From a virus (Duplodnaviria; Heunggongvirae; Uroviricota; Caudoviricetes): DNA of 21,728 nucleotides. Positions 11,594 to 21,728 of the stretch are shown one piece after another. The notes beneath the pieces were generated by a model. That model was given only the letters and a program-made list of their open reading frames with translations, made no database searches and had not been told where the DNA came from. The position numbers were made by a program, and so were the translations under genes. How positions within the stretch are numbered: position 1 is the stretch's first letter; each line of letters opens with the position of its first letter. The DNA is taken from positions 1 to 21,728 of the IMG/VR virus record IMGVR_UViG_2529292909_000013, one strand, 5' to 3'.

Positions 11594-11669
11594 GGCCCTT
11601 TAGCTCAGTGGTGAGAGCGAGCGACTCATAATCGCCAGGTCGCTGGTTCAAATCCAGCAAGGGCCACCA
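11594..11669 (+). tRNA. ileZ: tRNA with CAT anticodon (Ile2/Met type)
   Basis: Cloverleaf folded by hand: acceptor GGCCCTT/AAGGGCC, anticodon loop cTCATaa, T-loop TTCAAAT, 3' CCA encoded. Symbol follows Stx-phage naming. Confidence 0.75.
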
Positions 11670-11676
11670 TCACATA

Positions 11677-11753
11677 CCGCCATTAGCTCATCAGGAAAGA
11701 GCGCCAGCCTTCGAAGCTGGTTGCGCGGAGTTCGGGTCCCCGAAGGCGGTCCA
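11677..11753 (+). tRNA. argN: tRNA-Arg (TCG anticodon), slightly non-canonical
   Basis: Anticodon stem CCAGC/GCTGG with loop cTTCGaa; T-loop TTCGGGT; one mismatch each in acceptor and T stems; CCA encoded. Confidence 0.55.
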
Positions 11754-11766
11754 TTATCTGTATCCT

Positions 11767-11843
11767 GCGTTGTTAGCTCAGCCGGACAGAGCAATTGCCT
11801 TCTAAGCAATCGGTCACTGGTTCGAATCCAGTACAACGCGCCA
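11767..11843 (+). tRNA. argO: tRNA-Arg (TCT anticodon)
   Basis: Acceptor GCGTTGT/ACAACGC, anticodon loop cTTCTaa, T-loop TTCGAAT, CCA encoded. Confidence 0.8.
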
Positions 11844-12818: not shown

Positions 12819-14195
12819 ATGGCATTTAAACACTATGATGTTGTCAGGGCGGCGTCGCCGTCAGATCTTGCGGAAAAGCTGACACATAAACTGAAAGAGG
12901 GCTGGCAGCCGTTTGGTAGTCCGGTGGCCATAACCCCTTATACCCTGATGCAGGCGATTGCAGCAGAAGGTGATGTGGTCGTCAGTGGTGCAACTGAGCC
13001 GGAGTGGTACTACGTCATCGTACTGGCCGGGCAGTCCAATGCCATGGCTTACGGTGAAGGGCTTCCGCTTCCGGATTCATACGATGCGCCCCATCCGCGC
13101 ATTAAGCAACTGGCCCGTCGTAACACAGTGACTCCCGGTGGTGAAGTATGCGTATTTAACGACATCATTCCTGCTGACCATTGTCTGCATGATGTTCAGG
13201 ATATGAGTACGATTAACCATCCCCGGGCTGACCTGAGCAAAGGGCAGTACGGCTGTGTCGGACAGGGCTTACATATTGCCAAAAAACTGCTTCCGTATAT
13301 CCCTAATAATGCGGGGATCCTGCTGGTACCATGCTGTCGTGGTGGTTCGGCATTCACCCAGGGCGCGGAGGGGACATTCAGTGCGGACACGGGGGCCAGC
13401 CAGGATTCGGCACGCTGGGGTGTGGGTAAACCGTTATATCAGGATCTGCTTTTCCGCACGAAGGCAGCATTGCAGAAAAACCCGAAAAACGTTTTGCTGG
13501 CGATATGCTGGATGCAGGGGGAATTCGATATGACGAATGCCAGTTACGCCCAGCAGCCAGCAGCATTTCTTGCAATGGTACAGCAGTTCCGTGCTGACCT
13601 TGCCGGGCTGGCGGCGCAGTGCCATGGCGGCAGTGCTGCAGTTGTACCGTGGATTTGTGGCGACACGACGTATTACTGGAAAAACACATACGGCACACAG
13701 TATGACTCCGTCTACGGCGCGTACAAAAACAGGGAGAGCGACAACGTTTTCTTTGTGCCGTTCATGACCGACGGTAACGGCAACAACACGCCCACCAACT
13801 TACCGGCAGAAGACCCGGATATTGCTGATGCAGGTTATTACGGCGCGCAATCCCGTAGTAATGGTAATTGGGTATCGTCAAATCGTCCGACACATTTCAG
13901 TTCATGGGCGCGCAGGGGCATTATTTCGGATCGCCTGGCAACCGCTATTCTGAACGCAGTTGGTCGAACCAGCGCCTTCATCAGCGGTACCGCACCGGAG
14001 ATTAAACCCTCGCCCGGCGGCGACACGCCATCGGGGCCGTCTGATGGTGACACATCCGTTCGTACAGTCTCCCTGCTGCCGACAGCCGGAGAGGCTGCTG
14101 CGCAGGGCTGGACCATCACCGGCGGCAGTGTTGCGCTGGAAGATGGTGTGTTTAAGGTTACCGCGTTAACGGAGCGCGGCGTTGTCCCCTCATAG
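12819..14195 (+). CDS. Prophage NanS-p-like esterase (sialate O-acetylesterase family)
   Basis: 458-aa ORF with GGGAGG RBS; resembles the nanS-p/yjhS-like gene found downstream of the tRNA/stx region in Stx-type lambdoid phages; contains the VIVLAGQSNAMAYGE segment and a Gly/Ser/Asp-rich C-terminal tail. Confidence 0.6.
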   Translation: MAFKHYDVVRAASPSDLAEKLTHKLKEGWQPFGSPVAITPYTLMQAIAAEGDVVVSGATEPEWYYVIVLAGQSNAMAYGEGLPLPDSYDAPHPRIKQLARRNTVTPGGEVCVFNDIIPADHCLHDVQDMSTINHPRADLSKGQYGCVGQGLHIAKKLLPYIPNNAGILLVPCCRGGSAFTQGAEGTFSADTGASQDSARWGVGKPLYQDLLFRTKAALQKNPKNVLLAICWMQGEFDMTNASYAQQPAAFLAMVQQFRADLAGLAAQCHGGSAAVVPWICGDTTYYWKNTYGTQYDSVYGAYKNRESDNVFFVPFMTDGNGNNTPTNLPAEDPDIADAGYYGAQSRSNGNWVSSNRPTHFSSWARRGIISDRLATAILNAVGRTSAFISGTAPEIKPSPGGDTPSGPSDGDTSVRTVSLLPTAGEAAAQGWTITGGSVALEDGVFKVTALTERGVVPS

Positions 14196-14658
14196 TCGCC
14201 TGTCCGGTGCGATGGTGGAAGAAGCCGGATGTTTATCACTATTAATTGATGACACAGAAATGGATTCATTGAATTTCAGCACGTTTTTGTATTCGTGTTA
14301 TTGAACATCTGTTTATTTACTTTTAACATATTGATAATAAAAAGAGCTGTAAATCTTTAGATGAGTCGATTTTGTCCGGGGAAGTTCAAATGGATTTTAT
14401 GCTGACGGTTTCTGGTGTGGTTATCCTGTCCATTGCTTATACTGCAGATAAATATGGCTGCCATTTGTTATCACGTATTGGCGCTTATTGTTCGTTGATG
14501 CTGATTTTCTCGTCGCTTTTTTGAGTAAGTTATATTAATTATAACAAATAATTTTCTGTGTTATTTTCAGGCTATCCCGTCAGAGGGGAAGCCTGTACTG
14601 CCAGGGAGCGAATGGAAAACTGATGTGTCCGGTAACTGCGTGTTCTGTGAACACCATG

Positions 14659-14844
14659 TTACTTAATTATGTAATTCATACCCGAACTCTCTGTTGACAG
14701 CCTTCTTCTGCAGGCTTCAATAACCCACGCTGAAAAGTTTCCTGAACCTTTCAGATCAAGAGCGATGTTAATTTGTTCAATCATCTGGTTTGGAAATCGG
14801 ATGTTGCGGGTTGTTGTTCTGCGCGTTCTGTTCTTTGATGACAT
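14659..14844 (-). CDS. Small ribbon-helix-helix-like protein (DUF3950/YlcI-like)
   Basis: 61-aa minus-strand ORF; strand-helix-helix pattern RNIRFPNQMIEQINIALDL...FSAWVIEACRRRL typical of RHH DNA-binding proteins; sits just upstream of cos/Nu1. Confidence 0.45.
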   Translation of the reverse strand: MSSKNRTRRTTTRNIRFPNQMIEQINIALDLKGSGNFSAWVIEACRRRLSTESSGMNYIIK

Positions 14845-15019
14845 AATGTTTCCCCATATTCAGTGTTGCTGATTTGTATTATCAGAAGTTGCTTTTACGT
14901 TAATTTGACGCAGATCAATTAATACGATACCTGCGTCATAATTGATTATTTCTCGTGGTTTGATGGCGTACACACATGTTGTGATAAACCTTATATAGAT
15001 GATAATCATTATCATTTCG

Positions 15020-15230
15020 TGGGTCCTTTCCGGCGATCCGACCGGTTACGGGGCGGCGACCTCGCGGTTTTTCACTATTTATGAAAATTTTTCAGGGAAA
15101 ATCGTGTCGGTACTTCTCGAATATAACTTTTTGTTTTTTTTAATATTGCATCCGTAAAGGTCCGACATGAAAGTGTCCGAAAATGCCTTTTTCTGGCGTT
15201 TTCATGTCGGGCCTTGTATTTGATAATGGG
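15020..15230 (+). other. Lambda-like cos site (cosQ-cosN-cosB)
   Basis: GGGCGGCGACCTCGCGGTTTTTCACTATTTATGAAAATTTT at 15051.. is near-identical to the lambda left end (12-nt cohesive end GGGCGGCGACCT). The preceding GGGTCCTTTCCGGCGATCCGACCGGTTACG matches the lambda right end. Inverted repeats GTCCGACATGAAA / TTTCATGTCGGG (about 15165..15215) look like cosB R-sites. Confidence 0.75.
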
Positions 15231-15238
15231 TTGTTTTC

Positions 15239-15787
15239 ATGAAGGTTAATAAAAAGAGGCTTGCCGAAATTTTCAACGTGGACCCGCGGACGATTGAACG
15301 CTGGCAGTCTCAGGGACTCCCTTGCGCCTCCAAAGGTAGTAAGGGCATTGAATCTGTATTTGATACTGCCATGGTAATTCAGTGGTATGCGCAGAGGGAA
15401 ACTGATATCGAAAACGAAAAGCTCCGCAAAGAACTGGACGATTTGCGTGCGGCAGCGGAGTCAGATTTACAACCCGGCACCATTGACTATGAACGCTACC
15501 GGCTCACAAAAGCGCAGGCAGATGCGCAGGAACTGAAAAATGCCCGTGAAGACGGAGTAGTGCTGGAAACTGAACTGTTTACCTTCATTCTGCAACGTGT
15601 GGCACAGGAGATTTCGGGGATACTTGTGCGTGTGCCGTTGACATTACAGCGTAAATATCCGGACATTTCACCATCACACCTTGATGTGGTGAAAACTGAA
15701 ATCGCGAAAGCCTCCAATGTTTCAGCTAAGGCCGGTGAAAACGTGGGCGGGTGGATCGATGATTTCAGACGCGCAGAAGGCAGCTAA
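15239..15787 (+). CDS. Terminase small subunit Nu1
   Basis: 182-aa product closely similar to lambda Nu1 ([62 protein letters not shown]). Confidence 0.9.
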
Positions 15788-16967
15788 TGCAGCCGGTGCG
15801 ATAGCAACAGGGCTTTTATCTCTCATTATTCCTGTTCCACTGACGACAGTTCAGTGGGCCAATAAACATTATTACCTTCCTAAAGAGTCGTCTTATACCC
15901 CGGGGCGGTGGGAAACACTGCCGTTTCAGGTTGGCATCATGAACTGTATGGGCAACGATTTGATTCGCACTGTTAACCTGATTAAATCTGCCCGTGTTGG
16001 TTATACAAAGATGTTGCTGGGAGTGGAGGCTTATTTTATTGAGCATAAATCACGCAACAGCCTTCTTTTTCAGCCCACGGACTCAGCTGCTGAAGATTTT
16101 ATGAAATCTCATGTTGAGCCAACGATAAGGGAGGTTCCTGCGTTGCTGGAGCTGGCTCCATGGTTCGGAAGAAAACACCGCGATAATACGCTCACCCTGA
16201 AGCGTTTTTCCTCCGGTGTGGGTTTCTGGTGTCTGGGGGGAGCGGCAGCAAAAAACTACCGTGAAAAATCCGTGGATGTGGTCTGTTATGACGAGCTTTC
16301 CTCGTTCGAACCGGATGTTGAAAAAGAGGGTTCGCCAACCCTGCTGGGGGATAAACGTATTGAGGGCTCTGTATGGCCCAAATCCATTCGCGGCTCGACG
16401 CCTAAAATCAAAGGCTCCTGCCAGATCGAAAAAGCCGCTAACGAGTCGGCACACTTCATGCGTTTTTATGTGCCCTGTCCGCACTGTGGGGAGGAGCAGT
16501 ATCTGAAATTTGGCGATGAGTCCACGCCTTTTGGGCTTAAATGGGAGAAGGACAGCCCCGAAAGCGTTTTCTACCTCTGTGAGCATCATGGCTGCGTGAT
16601 CCATCAGTCTGAACTGGACCAGAGTAACGGGCGGTGGATCTGTGAAAACACGGGCATGTGGACCCGTGACGGTCTGACGTTTTTCAGCGCTGCGGGTAAT
16701 GAAATTCCGCCGCCGCGCTCCATCACTTTCCATATCTGGACGGCGTACAGTCCGTTCACCACCTGGGTACAGATTGTCTATGACTGGCTGGATGCACTGA
16801 AAGATCCCAACGGCCTGAAAACCTTTGTGAACACCACGCTGGGCGAGACCTGGGAAGAGGCTGTGGGCGAAAAACTCGATCACCAGGTACTGATGGATAA
16901 GGTTGTGCGTTACACGGCGGCGGTGCCTGCCCGGGTGCCCTCGTGGACTCGTCGCCTGACGCACTGA
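15759..16967 (+). pseudogene. Terminase large subunit (gpA) N-terminal fragment, truncated after about 400 codons
   Basis: From ATG 15759 the product tracks lambda gpA (ANKHYYLPKESSY..GRWETLPFQ, CPHCGEEQYLKFGD, TTLGETWEEAVGEK) up to about ...YTAAVPARV, then diverges and stops at 16967; lambda gpA is about 641 aa. Confidence 0.85.
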
Positions 16968-18235
16968 ATACGCTGAACGAGCTGGCTGCGGCGTTGGGCA
17001 ACGACCCGAATTTTGCGACCACCATGACTAACGCGCTTGCGGGTAAGCAACCGAAAGATGCCACCCTGACGGCGCTGGCCGGGCTTGCTACTGCGGCAGA
17101 CAAGTTTCCGTATTTTACGGGGAATGATGTTGCCAGTCTGGCAACCCTGACAAAAGTTGGGCGGGATATTCTTGCGAAATCGACCGTTGCCGCCGTTATC
17201 GAATACCTCGGTTTACAGGAAACGGTAAACAAGGCTGGTAACGCCGTTCAGCGTTCCGGCGATAAAATGACCGGAGAACTGAAAATTGGCACGGTGAATG
17301 CGCTGCGAATTTTCAATGATGCCTTCGGTCTTATTTTCCGTCGTTCAGAAGATTTTCTTCATTTCATTCCGACGGCTGAAGGACAAGGCGAAAACGGTGA
17401 TATCGGCCCATTAAGGCCATTCGCTATAAATCTGAGAACAGGTGCTATATCTGTCAGCCACGGGGCCAAAATTGATGGTGGGCTGGCGCTTGGTACAGAT
17501 AACGCACTGGGCGGTAATTCCATTACTCTCGGAGATAACGACACTGGTATTAAACAGGGCGGCGACGGTGTCCTTTTATTCTATTCAAATGGACAACTGG
17601 CATTTGGGCTTCAACCCGCATCTGCTGATTTTTATAAGCGGGTTGCATATATTCATCAGGGAATAATTCCTGATGGAAGTGGCGCATTTGCAGACCAGTT
17701 GAATAATGCCACCGCGCCTTTTGTTCAGACGCAGTTTGCCTGGAATCCCACTCCTGGTGGTCATTACGTGCCGATAGTTAAGGGCTTGTCCATTCGCAAT
17801 GGACAGGGCTATCCCGGCGCGGTCAGCTTTGGGTATTTACTGACAGAACAGTATGGATTTCCGGTTCCATGTATTCATATGCGTGGCGATGGCGGTAATG
17901 ATGCTTTATGGCAGTTTAACCCGAACCATAAATCCTTTATTTCACCGGGTGCTCTTATTGCGGGTGGCGTCCGTTATAACACCGATGGAAATATATTTGG
18001 TGGGTGCTGGGGGTCAAACTTAAATGATTACCTGAATAGTTCTTTTATCAGAAATGTGCGTCTGGGAGGCAGACGTTCTGACACATTATATCGCGGAGGA
18101 CTTTGCGAACCAGGTAATGGTCATGTGACAACAGGATTGCAAATTATTGGTGAGGTTGATGGAGATGACTGGATGGTGTCACGACCACTACAAAAATACA
18201 TTTCTGGTAACTGGTATAACGTTGAACAGGCATAG
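16943..18235 (+). CDS. stf: Side tail fibre protein, 3' portion (constant-region end plus variable segment Sv); 5' part missing
   Basis: Contains the conserved DALNTLNELAAALGNDPNFATTMTNALAGKQPKDATLTALAGL...AAVIEYLGL block of lambdoid Stf proteins and a C-terminal receptor-binding-like domain. No upstream shaft/N-terminal region; begins at the junction with truncated gpA. Confidence 0.75.
   Translation: MDSSPDALNTLNELAAALGNDPNFATTMTNALAGKQPKDATLTALAGLATAADKFPYFTGNDVASLATLTKVGRDILAKSTVAAVIEYLGLQETVNKAGNAVQRSGDKMTGELKIGTVNALRIFNDAFGLIFRRSEDFLHFIPTAEGQGENGDIGPLRPFAINLRTGAISVSHGAKIDGGLALGTDNALGGNSITLGDNDTGIKQGGDGVLLFYSNGQLAFGLQPASADFYKRVAYIHQGIIPDGSGAFADQLNNATAPFVQTQFAWNPTPGGHYVPIVKGLSIRNGQGYPGAVSFGYLLTEQYGFPVPCIHMRGDGGNDALWQFNPNHKSFISPGALIAGGVRYNTDGNIFGGCWGSNLNDYLNSSFIRNVRLGGRRSDTLYRGGLCEPGNGHVTTGLQIIGEVDGDDWMVSRPLQKYISGNWYNVEQA
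17196..17221 (+). other. Left crossover site (ix/gix-like) for Pin/Gin-family DNA invertase
   Basis: TTATCGAATACCTCGGTTTACAGGAA is 22/26 identical to the reverse complement of the site at 20275..20300 and resembles Mu gix. Lies in the EYLGL codons at the constant/variable junction of stf. Confidence 0.65.
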
Positions 18236-18250
18236 CCATCAGGAGAATAT

Positions 18251-18778
18251 ATGCAACATCTGAAAAATATTACCGCCGGAAACCCCAAAACCATTGAGCA
18301 GTATCAGCTTACGAAAAAAGCTGGCGTTATCTGGCTATATACAGAAGACGGTAAAAACTGGTATGACGAATTAAAAAACTTTCAGGATGATACTTTAAAA
18401 ATAGCTTATGACCAGAAGGGGATTATTCGTTGTATTGAGAAAGACGTATCAATGCTTAACCCTGACGGGTTAAGTGTTGTTGAGTTACCGAATATAACAG
18501 CCAACCGTCGCGCCGATATCTCGGGAAACTGGAAGTTTCTGGATGGTAAAGTAGTAAAGCGGGAATATACAAAACAGGAACTGCAACAGCAGGCAGAGTT
18601 ACAAAAAGCCGCTTTGCTTTCCGAAGCGGAGTCTGTGATTCAACCGCTGGAACGTGCTGTCAGACTGAATATGGCAACTGATGAGGAACGCACACGACTG
18701 GAATCATGGGAACGCTACAGCGTTATGGTCAGCCGTGTGGATACTGCAAAGCCTGAATGGCCACAGAAACCAGAATAA
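18251..18778 (+). CDS. tfa: Tail fibre assembly protein (Tfa)
   Basis: 175 aa; typical Tfa N-terminus ([28 protein letters not shown]) and C-terminus ([12 protein letters not shown]...RVDT...PEWP). Confidence 0.85.
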
Positions 18779-18787
18779 CAACAAATT

Positions 18788-18810
18788 AAGGCCCGTACGG
18801 GCCTTTTCTT
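18788..18810. terminator. Intrinsic terminator between the convergent tfa genes
   Basis: aggcccgtacgggcct hairpin followed by TTTTCTT; could serve both strands. Confidence 0.5.
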
Positions 18811-18911
18811 ATTCTGGTGGTTCCGGGAATGTTACAGGAAGAACCGAGGTATCAGTTGTCTCAACCTGTTGCACGTATCGCATCCAGTTCATCAGTTGCT
18901 GTCTGTCTGAA

Positions 18912-19340
18912 TCAGTGATAATCCCCAAAGTAAGCTGTGTTTGCCAGAACTGCGTTTTTCTCTGGCCTGCTGTAATAATATTTTTTCTGGTTTTCCGTCT
19001 GTAGGCGCAACTCTTCTTCGGTATATACACGTTTAATGACTGCGCCATCTTTAAACATCCATTTACCTGAGTCGTCAGCACGCCGGTTGGCGGTAATATC
19101 AGGAATCTCAACGACGCTATAACCTTCAGGGTTAAGTGTGGAGGCATCTTTGGTTATGGCAACAATAATATTATTTTCATCGTAAACAATCTTTATGGTG
19201 TCTGGCTGAAATTTTTTCACTTCCTCATACCAGTTTTTTCCGTCCTCAGAGTAAAGCCAGATAACTCCGTGTTTCTTTGTTAACTCATACTGTTCCAGTG
19301 TTTTAGCATTACCCGCTTTTATGTTCTTTAAGTGCATCAT
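18912..19340 (-). CDS. tfa: Alternative tail fibre assembly protein (Tfa') in inverted orientation
   Basis: 142 aa on the minus strand; N-terminus parallel to Tfa ([28 protein letters not shown]); start lies 2 nt downstream of the stf' stop on the minus strand. Confidence 0.8.
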
Positions 19341-19341
19341 A

Positions 19342-20292
19342 TTAAACGCTCGCTACATTATACCAGGTGCCATTTATATACTTTTGAACGGGTCTGTAAT
19401 AAACGCCCGCTATATTATCGGCAGAGTTAGACCCTGTATCCTGAACATTAATACCAGACAATACATGACCTGAAGGGCACTGGAAATTCCATGTTTGCCA
19501 GTTGTTCACTCCATAATATTGCTGTGAACCAAGTCGAACATCTTTCACATAACGGGAATCAAAGTTACCGTAATCCGAGGGGTTAACACGCCCTGTAATA
19601 TTTATGGTTTTATTACTTTGAATGCTTCCGGAGACAAAGCGCATAACATGGACGTTATTAGCATAAACATCCAGATTACCATCGCCATTTTGTTTAAAGC
19701 CCGTGTCATTATCACCCAATACAATCGAATTACCGCCAAGAGCACTGGATGTTCCGATACCCAGTGCACCATTCAGTTGACCACCAGATAACGGCAGTGC
19801 ACCAACATCTCCTGCTGAAGGTTTTCTGGTGGTGGTGTAAAATTCGGACCAGTCGGCTTCAAAACCATAACCATCACGGGCTGAACGATAAAAAATACCG
19901 CCATTTTTATAATTAATCCGAAACTGAACTGCAGGACAACTTCCTTCTCCCATATAAAAATGAATAATTAACGTTGATGCACCACTAATAGTTGCGTTAT
20001 AGGCTCCGCTACTCCAGTTCCATCCAACTGCTTTATCATTCGCAACGGTGCTTCCTGTTTTCCCTAAGGCAAACGCACCAACATGACTTGCTTTTAATGT
20101 GATATCGGAGGAACCATCAAAAGCCACATTGCTTATTTTCCTGGCAGTTTTTAATTTTGCAGCTGTAGAAGCATTGCCGGATAGTTCACCAGAAAGGCCA
20201 CCGCTGAATGTTTGTCGATTAGTCCAGGTATTCGCTGTACTGAGTAACGGTATTTTCTCCCCGCTTGTGCCGAGTTCTCGTAAACCGAGGTT
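19342..20292 (-). CDS. stf: Alternative tail fibre variable segment (Sv'), promoterless/startless, inside the invertible segment
   Basis: Minus-strand frame is open from 20292 (translated by hand: [32 protein letters not shown]...), beginning exactly in the LGL codons at the right crossover site; would be fused to the constant stf region after inversion. Confidence 0.7.
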
Positions 20293-20300
20293 TTAGATAA
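20275..20300 (+). other. Right crossover site (ix/gix-like)
   Basis: TTCTCGTAAACCGAGGTTTTAGATAA closely resembles the Mu gix site and lies just upstream of the pin reading frame. Confidence 0.65.
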
Positions 20301-20354
20301 TGGCGGTTTCTGGCCTGCATGGCATGATTTGTGCTTTTGGACGGGAGATTCAGC

Positions 20355-20537
20355 GTGCTGATTGGCTATGTAAGGGTATCAACAAATGACCAGAATACAG
20401 ATCTGCAACGAAACGCTCTTGTTTGTGCAGGATATGAACAAATATTTGAAGATAAATTAAGCGGAACAAGGACAGGCCGACCTGGATTAAAACGTGCTTT
20501 AAAGCGCCTTCAAAAAGGTGACGCACTGGTTGTCTGA
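20355..20537 (+). pseudogene. pin: Pin/Gin-family serine DNA invertase, N-terminal 60 codons followed by decayed frame
   Basis: GTG start; (M)LIGYVRVSTNDQNTDLQRNAL...LKRALKRLQKGD matches the Pin N-terminus including the catalytic-Ser region; stops at 20535..20537 where Pin has Trp. Downstream reading still resembles Pin (K-L-D...L...HL) but with further stops, then ends at a tfa fragment. Confidence 0.8.
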
Positions 20538-20600
20538 AAACTGGACTGACTGGTTCACTGTATGCGGCATCTTGTCGTGCTGGTGGTGGAAGCCTAGAAA

Positions 20601-20681
20601 AAGTATCGGGTGTTACTGAACCGTGTTGATACATCAACTGCACCTGATATTGAGTGGCCTACGAACCCTGTCAGGGAGTAA
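20601..20681 (+). pseudogene. Tail fibre assembly gene 3' fragment (duplicate of 21648..21728)
   Basis: Encodes ...[23 protein letters not shown]-stop, nearly identical at DNA level to the 3' end of the tfa fragment at the window end. Confidence 0.6.
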
Positions 20682-20707
20682 TCATTGGGATTATGCCGCA
20701 GCACGTC

Positions 20708-21319
20708 TTAAGCAAGAACGTGCTGCGGTTGGATGCTATTTTTCCCTGAAGCGGAAAACATTACTACAGTACCTTGAACCTTGGTTTTAACATTCTCGAA
20801 ATGCTCTGAGAGTATATGTGTTAAGCCTTCTTCGGAATCTTTTGTGTTTGAAAAGATGCCTTTCTGATTGTAAATGCGCATCAGTTTTTGACCGAAGCTA
20901 TTGTGCACAACTCCATCGCCAAGAATTGTGGCTCCGTATAGAGTTCCATCGTCAGTTAAGGCCTGCGCCGCATTGCGTATTACACAGCTTTTTGTAGATA
21001 TATTTCCAGGCAGGCAGTGAAGAAGGTAAAACATGGAAATGGAATCAAATTGACCATGTAACGCCGCGGGATAAGGTTCAAAAACATCATGGCTAATTTT
21101 ATGTTTAATTTTTGATTCCCCAGCCCTTGTAGATGCCGCGTTCAGGCTAGCTTCGTTCAAATCCATTAAAGATATCAGACTACTCTCAGGTACGTGAGTA
21201 AGGTAAAACCCAGTTCCAACACCAATATCCAGATGGTTGTTACCTACATGTTCCAGAAAGTGTGGAAGAAGGTGTTCCTTTGTAGGACATCCCCATGCAA
21301 GCCGATTTGATACTCCCAA
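20708..21319 (-). CDS. Class I SAM-dependent methyltransferase (YbcY-like), probably 5'-truncated
   Basis: 203 aa with the AdoMet-binding glycine motif LDIGVGTGFY; no ATG at the N-terminus (frame is open upstream to a stop at about 21362 with only TTG/CTT candidates), suggesting a remnant like ybcY of DLP12. Confidence 0.6.
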   Translation of the reverse strand: MGVSNRLAWGCPTKEHLLPHFLEHVGNNHLDIGVGTGFYLTHVPESSLISLMDLNEASLNAASTRAGESKIKHKISHDVFEPYPAALHGQFDSISMFYLLHCLPGNISTKSCVIRNAAQALTDDGTLYGATILGDGVVHNSFGQKLMRIYNQKGIFSNTKDSEEGLTHILSEHFENVKTKVQGTVVMFSASGKNSIQPQHVLA

Positions 21320-21458
21320 AACCCACCAGTCATAAAGCTTTAGGGTAAGTGGTGTGTAAATTTTAGCCCCATCATCTGTGTTTTTTTCATTGATTTCACC
21401 ATGTTATAGTTTTATTTGTGAATTAAATCAATTATGGCGATGAATTACAAGGGGTTAA

Positions 21459-21728
21459 ATGCTGCCGCAGCATAGCGATATTGAAATAGCCTGGTATGCT
21501 TCGATACAGCAAGAGCCGAATGGCTGGAAGACCGTCACCACACAGTTCTACATCCAGGAATTCAGTGAGTATATTGCGCCACTGCAGGATGCTGTAGATC
21601 TGGAAATCGCAACGGAGGAAGAAAGATCGTTGCTGGAGGCATGGAATAAATATCGGGTATTGTTGAATCGTGTTGATACATCAACTGTACCTGATATTGA
21701 GTGGCCTGCAAATCCTGTCAGGGAGTAA
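21459..21728 (+). CDS. Tail fibre assembly protein C-terminal fragment (TfaX-like)
   Basis: 89-aa ORF ending at the window edge; C-terminus [36 protein letters not shown] parallels the Tfa C-termini at 18251..18778 and the fragment at 20601..20681. Confidence 0.65.

Follow-up and report, generated by a model that had tools for sequence, protein, structure and literature searches.

Invertible tail-fibre segments in phages and prophages

In the Gin/Hin/Cin/Pin pathway of DNA inversion, a serine invertase dimer occupies each of two 26-bp sites, the sites synapse, all four strands are cut at the central 2 bp, half of the tetramer turns by 180 degrees, and religation leaves the intervening DNA inverted. 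The described system closest to the locus considered here is prophage Phi4 of Escherichia coli ST131 strain EC958, for which Forde et al. (2014, PLoS One 9:e104400; PMC4134206) reported a 3.1-kb segment with the same crossover sites and a truncated invertase (EC958_1582), stated to be without its DNA-binding domain. PacBio data from EC958 yielded the alternative allele on a separately assembled contig, pointing to inversion within one culture, and the invertase of Phi1, a P2-like prophage, was proposed to act in trans (PMC4134206). Phi1 carries a segment of its own, 2.8 kb long with 508-bp imperfect inverted repeats, and its crossover sites are near-identical to those of Phi4 (PMC4134206). There is precedent for such trans action: PinQ of the Qin prophage inverts the P segment of e14, both being cryptic prophages, and the e14 product StfE2 is reported to block adsorption of other phages (PMC12529663).

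The window analysed here, a 21,728-nt stretch of a Caudoviricetes virus record (IMGVR_UViG_2529292909_000013), holds a stranded copy of this published ST131 switch. From position 16936 to its end it is 99.7% identical to Phi4 of EC958, with 11 substitutions and four 1-nt deletions, and the EC958 sites at 1484784..1484809 and c1487865..1487890 map to 17196-17221 and 20275-20300. The two copies are the same element, sharing identical sites, the same invertase truncation, and the downstream tfa remnants and SAM methyltransferase; in EC958, however, the cassette sits on a full 968-aa stf with complete tail genes and an IS-interrupted lom, whereas the window joins terL to stf codon 539 and has lost the lysis cassette. 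Publication of the EC958 switch in 2014 already covered the sites, the truncated invertase and inferred inversion in trans, which leaves the cassette as such with little discovery value.

Other invertible systems resemble the locus in part. The G segment of phages Mu and D108 has the same layout (Sc-Sv-U, terminators, U'-S', gix, gin), and the likeness to D108 extends to U, U' and S' lengths equal to those of the window (528, 534 and 894 nt) and to a post-inversion hybrid right site identical to gixR. Mu and D108 are, however, transposable myoviruses, whereas the element hosting the window cassette is a lambdoid prophage with a truncated invertase, and the variable fibre parts of D108 are 70-81% identical to those of the window over only part of their length. 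The P segment and pinE of e14 in E. coli K-12 likewise form a fibre-end cassette in a tail-less defective prophage that is invertible in trans by PinQ, but e14 has an intact pinE, a 1.8-kb segment and a reported defence phenotype, and none is known for the window cassette. The H-gene segment of Phi1 is 96% identical to window positions 19021-20545, which run from within tfa' through Sv' and the site into the 5' end of the invertase gene, and 95% identical in the constant Stf end, differing in its intact 199-aa invertase and its myovirus baseplate context.

The features of the locus are as follows.

15717..16967, plus strand: truncated terminase large-subunit gene (terL); homology ends at 16937, stop codon at 16965-16967
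16936..16937: deletion junction joining terL to stf codon 539; left matches end at 16937, right matches start at 16936
16943..17209, plus strand: remnant of the constant part of Stf, residues 539-629 by translation; not in the terL frame, no convincing start codon
17196..17221: left crossover site, gix-like, TTATCGAATACC-TC-GGTTTACAGGAA, core at 17208-17209; identical to Phi4_5prime (PMC4134206, Table 3)
17210..18235, plus strand: Sv, variable C-terminus of Stf (receptor-binding) as currently oriented; PHROG tail-fibre families, E = 1e-73
18251..18778, plus strand: tfa, tail-fibre assembly chaperone cognate to Sv, 175 aa, intact; Caudo_TAP, E = 8e-35
18788..18805: bidirectional hairpin terminator between the convergent tfa genes; the D108 record annotates terminators at the equivalent place, between U and U'
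18809..19340, minus strand: tfa', chaperone cognate to Sv', frameshifted; reading frames 18912-19340 and 18809-19147 match the two halves of Caudo_TAP
19342..20286, minus strand: Sv', alternative variable fibre end, open to the right site; gp37_C, and tail-fibre PHROGs at E = 1e-117
20275..20300: right crossover site, TTCTCGTAAACC-GA-GGTTTTAGATAA, core at 20287-20288; identical to Phi4_3prime (PMC4134206)
20355..20597, plus strand: remnant of a Gin-family serine invertase, 80 codons; TGA at codons 61 and 65, TAG at codon 81
20376..20439: candidate Fis-dependent recombinational enhancer, placed by inference inside the retained invertase 5' end
20584..20681, plus strand: tfa 3' remnant fused to the invertase remnant, marking the truncation; direct repeat of 21631-21728

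Crossover sites

The original prediction placed two inverted, gix-like 26-bp sites at either end of the segment, and both their coordinates (17196-17221 and 20275-20300) and their identity to one another (22/26) were reproduced. An independent repeat search of the window recovered the pair as a 32-nt inverted repeat (17190-17221 / 20275-20306) that is 84% complementary, with five mismatches and a longest perfect run between the copies of 12 bp. For the comparison with gix that had been proposed as a check, gixR was taken from the annotated phage D108 record (TTCCTGTAAACCGAGGTTTTAGATAA) and searched with up to three mismatches allowed. Exactly two matches were returned in the window, namely the two 26-bp sites on opposite strands, each with two mismatches (24/26), and none of 100 shuffled controls contained any gixR match (chance expectation 0), which rules out chance similarity. 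The central dinucleotide is the same in both sites in inverted register, TC at 17208-17209 and GA at 20287-20288. The window therefore contains the arrangement recognized by Gin, Hin, Cin and Pin: two inverted 26-bp sites built of imperfect 12-bp half-sites around a shared 2-bp core. Table 3 of PMC4134206 gives both sequences among its invertase crossover sites.

Fibre genes and their chaperones

Between the sites lie mirror-image fibre 3' ends, each with its own chaperone and both in frame with the constant part. The predicted content, Sv and tfa on the plus strand and tfa' and Sv' on the minus strand, is borne out by reading frames, Pfam and PHROGs, the PHROG tail-fibre matches of the two variable parts ranging from E = 1e-73 to 1e-117. 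Pfam returned no family for the plus-strand Stf fragment; PHROGs did match it. The Stf frame (16943-18235, plus strand) continues through the left site, reading ...VIEYLGLQETV..., and the Sv' frame reads NLGLRELG... at the right site, in agreement with the earlier observation that the minus-strand frame is open to the crossover and shares the LGL codons of the constant part (EYLGL). In ST131, the constant Stf stretch is the same in both orientations up to ...EYLGL, and Stf is intact in either one (968 aa and 941 aa, with residues 1-629 in common), Sv' forming the 3' end of the 941-aa protein in flipped genomes.

Membership of both chaperones in Caudo_TAP (PF02413) is clear, with 120 bits for tfa against a cut-off of 22, and 43 and 50 bits for the two tfa' fragments; the ST131 counterpart of tfa is annotated as tail fiber assembly protein. 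The expected tfa' gene does lie on the minus strand, but in the window two T-runs, at 18954 and 18980, are each one nucleotide shorter than in EC958 and U13A, and the resulting frameshifts split the gene into two reading frames; the ST131 tfa' is intact at 534 nt. As these frameshifts lie in homopolymers, they could reflect sequencing error, in which case the gene would be less decayed than it looks.

The invertase remnant

The gene next to the right site had been read as a pin gene carrying a stop where Trp is expected, followed by further nonsense changes. The stops are indeed present, codon 61 being TGA where intact homologues have Trp, but the gene is also truncated to 80 codons and fused to tfa sequence, and its 5' part is gin-like by DNA identity (94% to D108 gin over the 266 nt from 20280 to 20545). 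Its last codons (MRHLVVLV) may be closer to Pin than to Gin. Similarity to invertases ends at about codon 80 of 184-199, where the frame enters the tfa 3' remnant, whose ST131 counterpart is annotated as tail fiber assembly protein missing its N-terminus; this remnant and 21631-21728 form a 98-nt direct repeat with 86% identity. The Pfam Resolvase match covers only positions 2-86 of 145, and some 100-120 codons are missing, namely those for the remaining catalytic domain and for the C-terminal part with the DNA-binding domain. Compared with a small serine recombinase, which combines a Resolvase domain with a C-terminal helix-turn-helix, the window thus has codons 1-80 only and no helix-turn-helix. 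As only this stump remains, the window represents the cis part of an inversion system and not a complete one.

The 5' 190 nt of the invertase gene are kept at 94-95% identity to intact gin-type genes and, in Hin, the native enhancer lies about 100 bp from hixL (PMC3798978). Two G-N13-C motifs that are conserved in D108 gin fall in this region, at distances of 95.5 and 144.5 bp from the centre of the site, although the motif is too degenerate to count as evidence; the region is a candidate for a retained enhancer.

Inversion among near-identical copies

Copies nearly identical to that of the window occur in both orientations. When the U13A sequence is inverted in silico at the central dinucleotides, it matches U12A over 7574 nt without a mismatch; the hybrid sites agree exactly with prediction, and both strains carry the same truncated invertase. 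The exchange is perfectly conservative and confined to a 12-bp interval (ACCTCGGTTTAC) centred on the gix core. The unflipped left junction was found in 235 genomes and the locus-specific flipped right junction in about 143 complete genomes. The latter count supersedes a figure of 213 flipped genomes obtained from the left junction, which was inflated by the Phi1 cassette, whose constant end is 95% and whose Sv' is 96% identical.

Both orientations occur together in one assembly, and ST131 isolates from the same study differ in orientation while having identical sites and the same truncated invertase; with orientation varying between such isolates and within single cultures, inversion must be frequent. 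Conservative inversion at the core is thereby documented for near-identical copies rather than for the window's own strain. The segment's reading as a Gin/Pin-type invertible tail-fibre switch is supported by the sites, the architecture and the identity with ST131. The original prediction had further described the switch as probably locked unless a homologue acts in trans. Its dependence on a trans-acting enzyme stands, but the wording was too pessimistic, since copies in both orientations show that this type of switch is not locked.

Loss of the surrounding prophage genes

The fibre genes had been described as likely vestigial or co-opted in the absence of a tail, and the flanking sequence confirms that the tail genes are gone. 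The terL product retains GpA_ATPase (E = 2e-57) and, of GpA_nuclease, positions 3-81 of 294 only, and matches of E. coli 042-type prophages to the terL side end at 16937. In EC958, the two junction points are separated by the portal, tail, tape-measure, J, lom and stf 5' genes; in the window, all head and tail genes, Stf residues 1-538 and the lysis cassette have been removed, so that the Stf fragment starts at residue 539 of the 968-aa EC958 protein (translation count). None of 5,426 E. coli complete genomes contains the terL::stf junction, and an exact search of GTDB representatives (one genome per species) did not find it either; a look-up of the 416-aa terL fusion product gave no match, and in no complete E. 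coli genome does a single place account for more than 60% of the window.

The deletion left the Stf frame out of frame with terL and with no credible start or ribosome-binding site, and no plus-strand promoter-like site was found upstream of it in 16800-17200. The neighbouring methyltransferase gene is frameshifted as well. Three lineages with independent internal deletions of the prophage, the window included, all retain the cassette.

How the segment is likely to be inverted

With the local invertase dead, any inversion must come from a trans-acting homologue of the Gin family, and whether the window copy flips in its own host is decided by genes beyond the window. The P2-like prophage Phi1 encodes an intact invertase of 199 aa, which is present, 100% identical, in flipped as well as unflipped ST131 strains; its 5' end and the accompanying site are about 95% identical to the window remnant, a similarity that is lost after about codon 80. 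Site similarity and co-occurrence make the Phi1 invertase the candidate trans enzyme in ST131. In the window's host, an intact Gin-family invertase encoded elsewhere in the genome would be the catalyst: its dimers would bind both sites, synapse them, cut the cores, rotate and religate, thereby inverting 3.1 kb and exchanging Sv and tfa for Sv' and tfa' joined in frame to the constant stf. The cis elements of the window appear intact, being identical to those of copies that demonstrably invert. Having lost the tail and the Stf N-terminus, and with no evident start codon, the window copy would undergo this swap without consequence for a virion. Intact cis elements, dependence on an enzyme in trans and the lack of a virion consequence would together make the cassette a still-flippable relic, and we consider it highly probable that it is a Gin-type Phi4 cassette in a deleted lambdoid prophage, with its own invertase dead and its segment open to inversion in trans.

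The source strain might instead contain no compatible invertase, leaving the segment frozen in its present orientation and decaying. The dead local invertase, the heavy deletion of the prophage and the frameshifts in tfa' and the methyltransferase gene all suit this reading, as does the distribution of possible helpers: matches of any extent to the 3' half of a Gin/Pin-type invertase gene occur in only 58% of complete E. coli genomes, and in only 20% do they span at least 80% of that half. Yet both sites are intact and identical to those recombining in ST131, the 5' part of the invertase gene, which houses the enhancer in Gin and Hin systems, is retained at 94-95% identity, and Gin-family invertases are common in E. 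coli and cross-react, so that a frozen segment is a real possibility to which we give somewhat less than even weight. Far less can be said for RecA-dependent homologous recombination between the inverted repeats as the source of both orientations, even though a repeat is present and no working invertase gene adjoins it. RecA-mediated exchange usually needs 20-30 bp, far above the 12-bp perfect run in this 32-nt repeat with five mismatches, and an exchange that is perfectly conservative within 12 bp at the core of gix-matching sites, at the high frequency implied by same-study isolates and single cultures, led us to reject it as extremely improbable.

A host role for tail-less copies also has to be weighed. 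A truncated, orientation-dependent Stf fragment could act at the cell surface, for instance by blocking adsorption of other phages, for which e14 StfE2 is the precedent; the intact Sv and tfa frames and the persistence of the cassette in the three independently deleted lineages would fit. Against this stand the lack of a credible start, ribosome-binding site and nearby plus-strand promoter-like site, the frame mismatch with terL and the frameshifted alternative chaperone, and retention is equally explained by deletions having fallen elsewhere. We regard such a role as very unlikely, and its fuller form, in which the tail-less cassette is kept as a host-serving Stf fragment flipped by foreign invertases, for example as a receptor-masking anti-phage factor like StfE2, as slightly less likely still, although, if true, it would explain retention of the switch in the three deleted prophage versions.

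Under the preferred reading of a trans-flippable relic, the locus offers a worked example of cis inversion sites that outlive their own recombinase and stay active through the invertases of other prophages. Where sites are kept active by foreign invertases in this way, differences in orientation between genomes represent phase noise and not phylogenetic signal, and such inversion can yield spurious alternative contigs in long-read assemblies.

Architecture of the invertible fibre cassette

The fibre cassette is laid out as S-U-U'-S'-gin, like the G segment of Mu/D108, down to gene lengths of 528, 534 and 894 nt, and its crossover sites, architecture and in-frame alternative fibre ends are established.

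Features of the cassette and the adjoining invertase remnant (window coordinates)
16943-18235, plus strand: Stf frame, reading across the left site (...VAAVIEYLGLQETV...)
17196-17221: left crossover site
18251-18778, plus strand: tfa, the Stf chaperone gene (Caudo_TAP, E = 8e-35)
18788-18805: bidirectional hairpin terminator between tfa and tfa'
18809-19340, minus strand: tfa', split into two ORFs in the window
19342-20286, minus strand: alternative fibre end Sv', open as far as the right site, beginning NLGLRELG...
20275-20300: right crossover site
20355 (GTG start), plus strand: invertase frame, beyond the right site
20584-20681: tfa 3' remnant, entered by the invertase frame; direct repeat (86%) of a tfa fragment that closes the window

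The original prediction had placed stf and tfa on the plus strand and tfa' and stf' on the minus strand, with the minus-strand frame open up to the crossover, and this content is borne out; both variable parts also match tail-fibre PHROGs (E = 1e-73 to 1e-117). The split of tfa' is due to two 1-nt deletions in T-runs relative to the ST131 copies of the cassette. Single-base deletions relative to those copies lie at 18954, 18980, 20738 and 21380, each within a run of 5-7 T, and frameshift both tfa' and a class I SAM methyltransferase gene (~20708-21404, minus strand); these frameshifts may not be biological, the pattern being typical of homopolymer sequencing errors.

The two 26-bp sites proposed in inverted orientation are real. 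An unbiased repeat search of 15000-21728 recovered them within its second-longest inverted pair, with arms of 32 nt (17190-17221 and 20275-20306) that are 84% complementary, and the cores are identical at 22 of 26 positions. Their likeness to gix also holds: gixR of phage D108, taken from the annotated phage record and searched along the full window at a tolerance of up to 3 mismatches, hit exactly these two sites, on opposite strands with 2 mismatches each, while 0 of 100 shuffled sequences contained any match. Productive inversion by this invertase family requires an identical core dinucleotide in inverted register, and the central dinucleotides agree in this way (TC at 17208-17209, GA at 20287-20288).

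Decay of the local invertase

The local invertase is dead. Its 5' part retains 94% identity to D108 gin and 95% to the invertase of Phi1, a P2-like prophage of E. coli ST131 strain EC958, and three stops interrupt its frame, a TGA at codon 61, another at codon 65 and a TAG at codon 81. Likeness to the intact 199-aa Phi1 enzyme fades past codon 64 and is lost by about codon 80, the Pfam Resolvase match is limited to profile positions 2-86 of 145, and the frame runs into a tfa remnant, which together show that deletion has removed the remainder of the catalytic domain along with the C-terminal part bearing the DNA-binding domain. A stop after 60 codons followed by further nonsense changes had been predicted and is present, but the gene is truncated as well, not a full-length pseudogene.

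The two tfa 3' remnants (20584-20681 and 21631-21728) are direct repeats of 98 nt with 86% identity, and a SAM-dependent methyltransferase gene lies between them on the other strand; this arrangement suggests the loss of earlier fibre cassettes downstream of the switch.

Inversion among ST131 genomes

Predicted post-inversion junctions were built at the central dinucleotides and searched against complete E. coli genomes. The left junction of the flipped segment (opposite to the window's orientation) was found over its full length, at 99.6% identity or better, in many ST131 genomes, the locus-specific flipped right junction in 143 genomes, and the unflipped left junction in 235. Isolates from the same study differ in orientation: U12A is flipped and U13A, U14A and U15A unflipped; S3 and S4 are flipped, S2 and S5 unflipped; 2/0 and 4/0 are flipped, 4/1-1 and 4/4 unflipped. 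In-silico inversion of U13A at the core dinucleotides reproduces all 7,574 compared nt of U12A without a mismatch, the hybrid sites of U12A match prediction exactly, and both isolates carry the same truncated invertase: near-identical copies undergo conservative inversion. In one assembly the chromosome is unflipped and a 32.7-kb 'extrachromosomal' RefSeq record, NZ_CP015087.1, is flipped; this record bears chromosomal flanks (trpA and an ompW remnant) and so looks like a contig of the alternative orientation assembled from a mixed culture, not a true replicon.

Half-site differences narrow the exchange point to a 12-bp interval, ACCTCGGTTTAC. Since 12 bp is too short for RecA exchange, the exchange is site-specific and RecA-mediated inversion is rejected. 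The original reading of a real switch was correct and needs refining on two points: the invertase is truncated, and the switch type, thought probably locked unless a homologue acts in trans, is not locked, both orientations occurring among near-identical ST131 copies.

A probable invertase acting in trans

The element has been described before. Phi4, the EC958 lambdoid prophage with the same cassette, carries a 3106-bp invertible segment whose sites have exactly the sequences and coordinates seen here, a truncated invertase (EC958_1582), and an alternative allele on separately assembled PacBio contigs (Forde et al. 2014, PMC4134206); the window holds a further-decayed copy of this known element. 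An intact homologous invertase co-occurs with the switch: the 199-aa Phi1 gene is present at 100% identity in ST131 strains of either orientation, and its product, which Forde et al. proposed to act in trans on Phi4, is probably the acting enzyme. Experimental precedent for trans inversion among cryptic prophages exists in PinQ of Qin, which inverts the e14 P segment (PMC12529663). A Fis enhancer, natively spaced by about 100 bp (PMC3798978), may survive within the retained invertase 5' end, where candidate Fis motifs (20376-20390 and 20425-20439), conserved in D108, are weakly suggestive.

By this route the window's own copy could presumably still flip. That the segment is instead frozen in its source strain is a serious possibility, if somewhat the less probable one; being dependent only on genes outside the window, it is compatible with inversion in trans elsewhere. 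Inversion in the window would be inconsequential for virions, because the tail and the Stf N-terminus are missing and the remaining Stf fragment has no evident start codon. That this fragment has been co-opted for defence, in the manner of StfE2 of e14, is unsupported, and we regard it as very improbable.

Prophage of origin and deletions

The window from 16936 to its end matches, at 99.7% identity, a lambdoid prophage that sits at ompW beside trp in ST131 strains of E. coli, among them EC958 and JJ1886. In EC958 the cassette is joined to a full stf with portal-to-J tail genes upstream, whereas left of 16937 the window has a terminase large-subunit gene cut off inside its nuclease domain, a difference showing that a deletion has joined terL, in the wrong reading frame, to codon 539 of the 968 in stf (junction 16936-16937). 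This junction was found in 0 of 5,426 complete E. coli genomes and 0 GTDB representatives (one genome per species), and no record of a terL-stf fusion protein was found. A second internal deletion (12819-15239) is evident against a related E. coli 042 prophage: the nanS-like SASA esterase ORF lacks its 3' end (458 versus 617 aa), and holin, lysozyme and Rz genes are missing from the region ahead of Nu1 (15239), where the sole remaining ORF is YnfO-like (14659-14844, minus strand).

The stretch 19021-20545, which takes in Sv', the right site, part of tfa' and the 5' end of the invertase gene, is 96% identical to half of the Phi1 cassette (locus L005, 2578-4102); the Sv and tfa half is not. Sharing of one half with an unrelated P2-like prophage makes it appear that fibre-end modules have been exchanged between siphovirus-type and myovirus-type prophages.

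Other ompW/trp prophages carry independent internal deletions, from terL to lom in E100341 (locus L002, 19822-20236) and from Nu1 to J in EC21Z-078 (locus L007, 2293-4574). All independently deleted copies retain the switch, and the invertase is truncated in the same way in each; the truncation is thus older than these deletions. Three tRNA genes (11594-11843) follow the phage DNA methylase gene, with a CAU anticodon (Met per ARAGORN, Ile in the annotation of related RefSeq records), Arg-UCG and Arg-UCU, an arrangement also present in related lambdoid prophages.
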